This document shows positions 16,234 through 17,131 of a stretch of DNA of 48,200 bases, piece after piece (the first letter of the stretch is position 1; each line of letters begins with the position of its first letter). The stretch lies in the IMG/VR virus record IMGVR_UViG_2563366870_000003; one strand, given 5' to 3'. The notes under the pieces are model-generated. The model worked only from the letters and a program-made list of their open reading frames with translations. It had not been told where the DNA came from and ran no database searches. The translations under genes were made by a program, and so were the position numbers. The stretch comes from a virus (Duplodnaviria > Heunggongvirae > Uroviricota > Caudoviricetes).

Positions 16234-17131
16234 ATGACAAATACAGCAAAAATACTCAACTTCTGCAGAGGTAACTTTGCCAAACAGGAGCGTAATGTGG
16301 CAGATCTCGATGATGGTTACGCCAGACTATCAAATGCTGCTTGAGGCTTATTCAGGCGCAGATCTGACCAAGCGACAGTTTAAAGTGCTGCTTGCCATTC
16401 TGCGTAAAACCTATGGATGGAATAAACCAATGGACAGAATCACCGATTCTCAACTTAGCGAGATTACAAAGTTACCCGTCAAACGGTGCAATGAAGCCAA
16501 GTTAGAACTCGTCAGAATGAATATTATCAAGCAGCAAGGCGGCATGTTTGGACCAAATAAAAACATCTCAGAATGGTGTATCCCTCAAAACGAGGGAAAA
16601 TCCCCTAAAACGAGGGATAAAACATCCCTCAAATTGGGGGATTGCTATCCCTCAAAACAGGGGGACACAAAAGACACTATTACAAAAGAAAAAAGAAAAG
16701 ATTATTCGTCAGAGAATTCTGGCGAATCCTCTGACCAGCCAGAAAACGACCTTTCTGTGGTGAAACCGGATGCTGCAATTCAGAGCGGCAGCAAGTGGGG
16801 GACAGCAGAAGACCTGACCGCCGCAGAATGGATGTTTGACATGGTGAAGACCATCGCGCCATCAGCCAGAAAACCGAATTTTGCAGGGTGGGCTAACGAT
16901 ATCCGCCTGATGCGTGAACGTGACGGACGTAACCATCGCGACATGTGTGTACTGTTCCGCTGGGCATGCCAGGACAACTTCTGGTCCGGTAACGTGCTGA
17001 GCCCGGCCAAACTCCGCGACAAGTGGACCCAGCTCGAAATCAACCGTAACAAGCAACAGGCAGGTGTGACAGCCTGCAAACCAAAACTCGACCTGACAAA
17101 CACTGACTGGATTTACGGGGTGGATTTATGA
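16234..17131 (+). pseudogene. O: Replication initiator O with an N-terminal frameshift
   Basis: ATG at 16234 with AGGAG SD gives MTNTAKILNFCRGNFAKQERNVADLDDGYARLSNAA* (stop at 16342-16344). The remaining 284 aa, which read as lambda O, are in the +1 frame (track ORF 16277-17131). Confidence 0.55.
16579..16668. repeat. ori-lambda iterons (four ~19-bp direct repeats) inside O, followed by an A+T-rich segment
   Basis: TATCCCTCAAAACGAGGGAAAA / TCCCCTAAAACGAGGGATAAAA / CATCCCTCAAATTGGGGGATTGC / TATCCCTCAAAACAGGGGGACAC, then AAAAGACACTATTACAAAAGAAAAAAGAAAAGATTATTCG. Confidence 0.85.

Follow-up and report, generated by a model that had tools for sequence, protein, structure and literature searches.

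A two-base deletion probably inactivates replication gene O in a lambda-like prophage of Escherichia coli

Reading frames and replication module

Replication gene O of the lambda-like prophage analyzed here, whose host is a human isolate of E. coli, is very probably a frameshift pseudogene, produced by a genuine and recent loss-of-function mutation in a prophage that is decaying. The window, i.e., the whole stretch of DNA analyzed (48,200 nucleotides; IMG/VR record IMGVR_UViG_2563366870_000003), comprises an entire lambdoid prophage, orthologous to the CFT073 prophage located beside sitABCD. The native start of O, ATG 16234, is preceded by the Shine-Dalgarno (SD) motif AGGAG at 16224-16228 (spacing, 5 nt) and opens a 36-aa ORF, MTNTAKILNFCRGNFAKQERNVADLDDGYARLSNAA, that stops at TGA 16342-16344. 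This 5' remnant (16234..16344, plus strand) contains O codons 1-34 followed by an out-of-frame Ala-Ala and the stop, and the remainder of the gene, codons 35-299 and the stop codon (16334..17131, plus strand), lies in the +1 frame with respect to the native start. By tblastn, O residues 1-34 (16234-16335) and 35-299 (16334-17128) both show 100% amino acid identity to the intact 299-aa O of CFT073. Instead of one uninterrupted frame of about 299 codons from an SD-preceded start, the window has a frame broken at codon 35, its pieces being adjacent ORFs in different frames that match consecutive parts of one homologue, with no compensating change downstream, as in frameshift pseudogenes.

A three-way alignment with lambda (NC_001416) and CFT073 placed a two-column gap at this point, where TCAAATATGCTG in both references becomes TCAAATGCTG in the window. 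A single AT unit is missing from the ATAT repeat at lambda positions 38786-38789 (codons 34/35 of O). The deletion site (16333..16336, plus strand) reads AAATG where intact homologues have AAATATG, with the leftover AT unit at 16334-16335, and the change from AATATG to AATG is the sole local difference from both lambda and the CFT073 prophage. Slipped-strand mispairing, dropping one AT unit of the (AT)2 repeat, would be the most likely origin of the lesion. Across 16013-18153, the 2,143 aligned bases of the window and CFT073 contain no mismatch, and the only gap is the 2-base one, from which the mutation appears recent. These results bear out an earlier note on this DNA, which had described an O-like ORF with a good SD halting after 36 codons, the loss of AT within the ATAT repeat relative to lambda, a remainder of O with intact iterons in the +1 frame, and in-frame downstream ATG codons at 16295 and 16334.

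The surroundings of the lesion retain the organization of a lambda-type initiator gene. The origin iterons lie inside O, within an ori-lambda (16580..16706, plus strand) that matches lambda 39034-39160 exactly over 127 bp; ITN1-4 start at 16580, 16600, 16624, and 16647, and the AT-rich region is also intact. The helicase-loader gene P comes next (17128..17829, plus strand; 233 aa; PF06992), with its start overlapping the O stop (ATGA), and is intact, with 100% amino acid identity to CFT073 P. A consensus scan found an apparently intact antisense oop RNA unit (16150..16259, minus strand), with the pO promoter at 16259-16231 and the oop terminator at 16177-16150; its placement relative to O and cII matches that of lambda (Hayes 2018, PMC6022878). 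Lambda gene O itself (NP_040631.1) shares the SD and start, the P overlap, and the oop/pO arrangement with the window, with 97.6% DNA identity over cII-O-P and the same 127-bp ori with four iterons. In contrast to lambda, the window lacks one AT unit and carries a few substitutions, such as G11C and G17K. The O gene of CFT073 (WP_000185431.1, C_RS28490), in the orthologous prophage, is closer still, with no nucleotide substitutions in 2.1 kb, but it is intact at 299 aa.

Ribosomes starting at ATG 16234 would halt after 36 codons, and the origin-binding and P-binding parts of O would be made from an internal start only, if at all, and without the conserved residues 1-34. If no functional O is made, no O-some would assemble on the intact iterons and, as expected from lambda biology, no theta replication would follow induction. 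Consequently, the prophage is most likely O-null, with an intact origin that is predicted not to fire, and it could replicate with an O of matching specificity provided in trans, a complementation reported to be inefficient in lambda (Hayes et al., PMC6022878). The closest experimental counterpart is lambda Oam905, which halts after 37 aa and is null on sup0 (non-suppressing) hosts (PMC6022878); the early truncation is similar, with 34 + 2 residues in the window allele. Small O deletions and insertions, certain of them perhaps polar on P, have also been found in the replication-defective RK- ilr cells that survive induction of defective lambda lysogens (PMC6022878), and the ilr lesions in O abolish initiation (Hayes et al. 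2018, PMC6022878). These mutants are of laboratory origin and their null phenotype was measured, whereas the window allele is natural and known from sequence. Unlike the Oam905 amber, it also leaves an open +1 frame and a usable internal start.

Prophage decay and possible selection

The replication module carries a second lesion. An IS3-family element of 1,310 bp (14703..16012, plus strand; orfA 14757-15083, orfB 15080-15970), flanked by a 3-bp target duplication (ATT, 14700-14702 and 16013-16015), splits cII at about codon 37, between pR/cro and O-P and 220 bp upstream of O. The 5' part of cII (14592..14702, plus strand; codons 1 to about 37) ends at the IS, and the 3' part (16013..16201, plus strand; codons 37-98) is 100% identical to CFT073 cII. 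O-P is thus parted from pR by 1.3 kb of IS, an insertion that would separately break the pR-cII-O-P transcription unit. The element, which contains an ALIL frameshift pseudoknot at 15038-15154 (Rfam), is 99.5% identical to the IS copies of the CFT073 prophage, which occupy other positions. Furthermore, a small DUF1317-like gene lying immediately before exo is interrupted by an IS21-family element (approximately 5461-7591; istA 6318-7490 and istB 5521-6321, minus strand) whose target duplication is 4 bp long (GCCT).

The CFT073 proteins that were compared have full-length matches in the window except for cII, O, and the small DUF1317-like gene, and int (1-1143) and xis (1133-1369) are intact. 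In the CFT073 prophage, the IS3-family copies occupy xis and the ren-ninB interval instead of cII, ISEc10 (another IS21-family element) interrupts ea22, cI is split, and tail gene V is frameshifted. Tail gene V (35431-36201) and cI (13464-14165) are both intact in the window. Since the lesions of the two copies are at different positions, the sister prophages decayed independently. The prophage in the window would be turning into a fixed chromosomal resident in which int, xis, cI, P, and the structural genes remain full length.

The early region is 99.3-100% identical to CFT073, and the lysis and head module (approximately 22.9-34.3 kb; endolysin and terminase-to-head genes, 22900-34350) is another allele set, with 34-66% amino acid identity, a divergence that indicates a swapped module. 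Between Q and terminase, the cargo comprises an OmpC-like porin (21035-22117, minus strand), an Iss/Bor serum-resistance lipoprotein (24638-24928, minus strand), and a protein with a TonB C-terminal domain (25409-25735, plus strand), each 100% identical to its CFT073 copy. A lambda cIII thermoregulator element precedes cIII (9728-9786, minus strand; Rfam match, 88.5 bits).

Ordinary decay is not the only way to read these lesions. It is possible, if rather doubtful, that inactivation of O, the IS insertion in cII, or both were positively selected, as a prophage with a dead origin or without lytic growth would spare its host on induction. The survivors of induced defective lambda lysogens mentioned above carry O indels and P-polar insertions (PMC6022878), which means that such lesions can be favored as host-protective. 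Two independent lesions within pR-cII-O-P, in a prophage whose other compared genes are full length except the small DUF1317-like one, fit this pattern. Against it, int and xis are intact, so that this is strictly not the classical non-excisable case; whichever of the two lesions came second may be neutral; and the population data amount to one small lineage.

A frameshift pseudogene of a textbook gene belongs to a well-understood class of events; the present one reads as ordinary prophage decay, and its significance beyond correct annotation is small. The prophage should be scored as replication-defective despite its almost complete gene set, and it offers a clean natural example of early prophage domestication, through a point lesion in the initiator combined with IS insertions.

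The lost N-terminus and internal restart

The earlier note had proposed either a pseudogene or an N-terminally truncated O made from a downstream start. From 16238 to the native O stop, the +1 frame has no stop codon, and it contains five potential starts, TTG 16277 and ATG 16295, 16310, 16313, and 16334. ATG 16295 has an SD (AGGAG, 16286-16290) 4 nt upstream, with a predicted anti-SD duplex of -7.8 kcal/mol versus -6.9 kcal/mol for the native start. Restart at this codon is plausible from these features and would yield a 278-aa protein (16295..17131, plus strand; ELJ87935.1 / EOX23636.1) composed of 13 novel residues (MWQISMMVTPDYQ) and O residues 35-299. ATG 16334 is not preceded by an SD; ribosomes that terminate at the nearby stop might reinitiate there.

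Pfam PF04492 (Phage_rep_O) covers residues 22-115 of intact O (profile positions 2-95 of 95). Both restart ORFs score above the gathering cut-off of 28.7 bits, the 278-aa ORF with 99.6 bits (positions 13-95) and the 265-aa ORF from ATG 16334 with 97.6 bits (positions 16-95), and they lack profile positions 1-12 and 1-15, respectively. We evaluated conservation in an alignment of 26 O alleles with identities down to 58% and strong divergence in the iteron-coding region. Judged from this alignment, conservation within the N-terminal domain is highest in residues 19-36, with V22, A23, G28, N34, and L36 invariant and E19, D27, and Y29 nearly so. According to the literature (PMC6022878), O binds the origin through its N-terminal part and P through its C-terminal part. 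AlphaFold models of intact O reached a mean pLDDT of 41 from the single sequence and 58 from the 26-sequence alignment, residues 1-32 fell below 50 in both, and our search found no solved structure of any O relative. A 284-aa O variant, present on 40 contigs, is the same as this O up to about residue 150, including the iteron-coding part, and has an unrelated C-terminal domain, which suggests domain swapping at the linker, possibly in adaptation to a different helicase-loader partner.

An O that is truncated yet still initiates at ori, either as the 278-aa form from ATG 16295 or as a 265-aa form perhaps produced by reinitiation after termination at the TGA, which lies 8 nt downstream of ATG 16334, seems to us quite unlikely. 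Its case consists of the AGGAG 4 nt before ATG 16295 with the stronger predicted duplex, the retention of most of the Pfam domain at 99.6 bits, the preservation of the whole C-terminal P-binding half and of the overlap with the P start, and the label of replication protein O that gene callers give to the restart ORF. On the contrary, the lost residues 19-34 are the best-conserved N-terminal-domain stretch among alleles of differing iteron specificity, and 12-15 of the 95 Pfam positions are gone; the 278-aa product is unlikely, on these grounds, to bind the origin. Moreover, such an arrangement is absent from all 1,334 genomes that carry this O, ribosomes coming from the native start traverse 16295, and the IS in cII parts the gene from pR. 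Our search found no published experiment on O lacking residues 1-34. Because the IS splits cII and the most conserved part of O is lost along with the first 34 residues, neither of which the earlier note mentions, the pseudogene is favored over the functional truncated O.

A restart product could also act without initiating. The 278-aa O, with its P-binding half but without the N-terminus, together with the oop-pO-iteron segment, might act on superinfecting lambda-replicon phages as a dominant-negative decoy, titrating their P, O, or DnaB loading. If so, the host would exclude such phages and lethal firing of the resident origin would be prevented. The published "inhibition phenotype" required multicopy plasmids (PMC3349717), and we give the decoy very little credence.

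Authenticity and distribution of the deletion

The evidence points to a true mutation, rare and of recent date, and not to an error of assembly. We compared the O region with 50,697 phage records and 5,426 complete E. coli genomes. In both databases, the best matches aligned 993 bases to the 991-base query with 99.8% identity, only the two bases being different. A 121-base query centered on the deletion matched 1,340 records in 1,334 complete E. coli genomes; the deletion occurred in none of them, no match reached 99%, and the best was 121/123. It was likewise absent from the 225 phage records that carry the stretch. The difference from more than 1,300 intact homologues is deterministic, not a chance pattern. 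At the protein level, the identical intact 299-aa O is found on at least 1,000 contigs, and the 278-aa and 36-aa forms are found on 2.

An exact look-up of the 278-aa product retrieved the drafts GCA_000408085.1 (KE136868.1), from E. coli KTE94, and GCA_000326525.1 (ANYX01000026.1), from E. coli KTE185, as well as contig SRR647244_264 of the Logan read assembly, which is common to 5 samples. These loci and that of the IMG/VR contig are 100% identical to the window across 1.2-20.8 kb, with 4.9-20.8 kb covered by the two drafts and the Logan contig, and the IMG/VR contig begins at the same base as the KTE185 contig, presumably because it is the same assembly. In KTE94 and KTE185, both O pieces (36 aa and 278 aa) are deposited as "replication protein O", entries that would represent one frameshifted pseudogene. 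The lesion is thus present in independent data and derived, its homologues being intact. The earlier note had asked whether intact homologues might share this exact sequence, which none of the 1,340 E. coli or 225 phage records does, and whether raw reads might contain the two bases; the deletion is instead present in the independent read assembly SRR647244_264.

The allele is confined to one small lineage. KTE94, KTE185, and the SRA runs may represent one clone from one sequencing center, so that the independent support is technical rather than phylogenetic; the two strain names had no match in the searchable literature. A sequencing or assembly artefact in a gene that is really intact is a highly improbable explanation. 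It draws on the fact that the allele is known from draft assemblies only and that both drafts bear KTE strain names, presumably from a single sequencing project. However, the same sequence appears in two separate deposits and in the read assembly of SRR647244, in a contig found in 5 samples, which argues that the deletion is real; moreover, short-read errors do not, to our knowledge, typically take the form of a clean 2-bp loss from a dinucleotide repeat of two units.

Restoration of full-length O by programmed +1 ribosomal frameshifting or transcriptional slippage can be practically dismissed: a +1 shift anywhere before 16342 would give a near-full-length protein, as that frame stays open as far as the native stop from 16238 on, but the sequence contains no known +1 slippery site (the 0-frame GCT GCT TGA G is not of the CUU-UGA type with an upstream SD) and no recognized motif near 16330-16344, long homopolymers are absent, the longest nearby A run being 5, and the arrangement is conserved in none of the 1,340 homologous records.

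Several candidates for further copies of the allele were examined and rejected. In the protein cluster, the O N-termini of 29-55 aa have the normal ...SNML sequence and are partial because their contigs end there. The contigs encoding the 265-aa "MLLEAY..." proteins of other samples keep the intact ATATG and break off or diverge a short distance upstream. The junction 21-mer occurred in IMG/VR only in the same assembly and not at all in species-representative genomes. Its one appearance in metagenome contig PVMK01182739.1 (51-71), which is GC-rich and otherwise unlike the window, is a chance match, illustrating that short junction patterns can match by accident.
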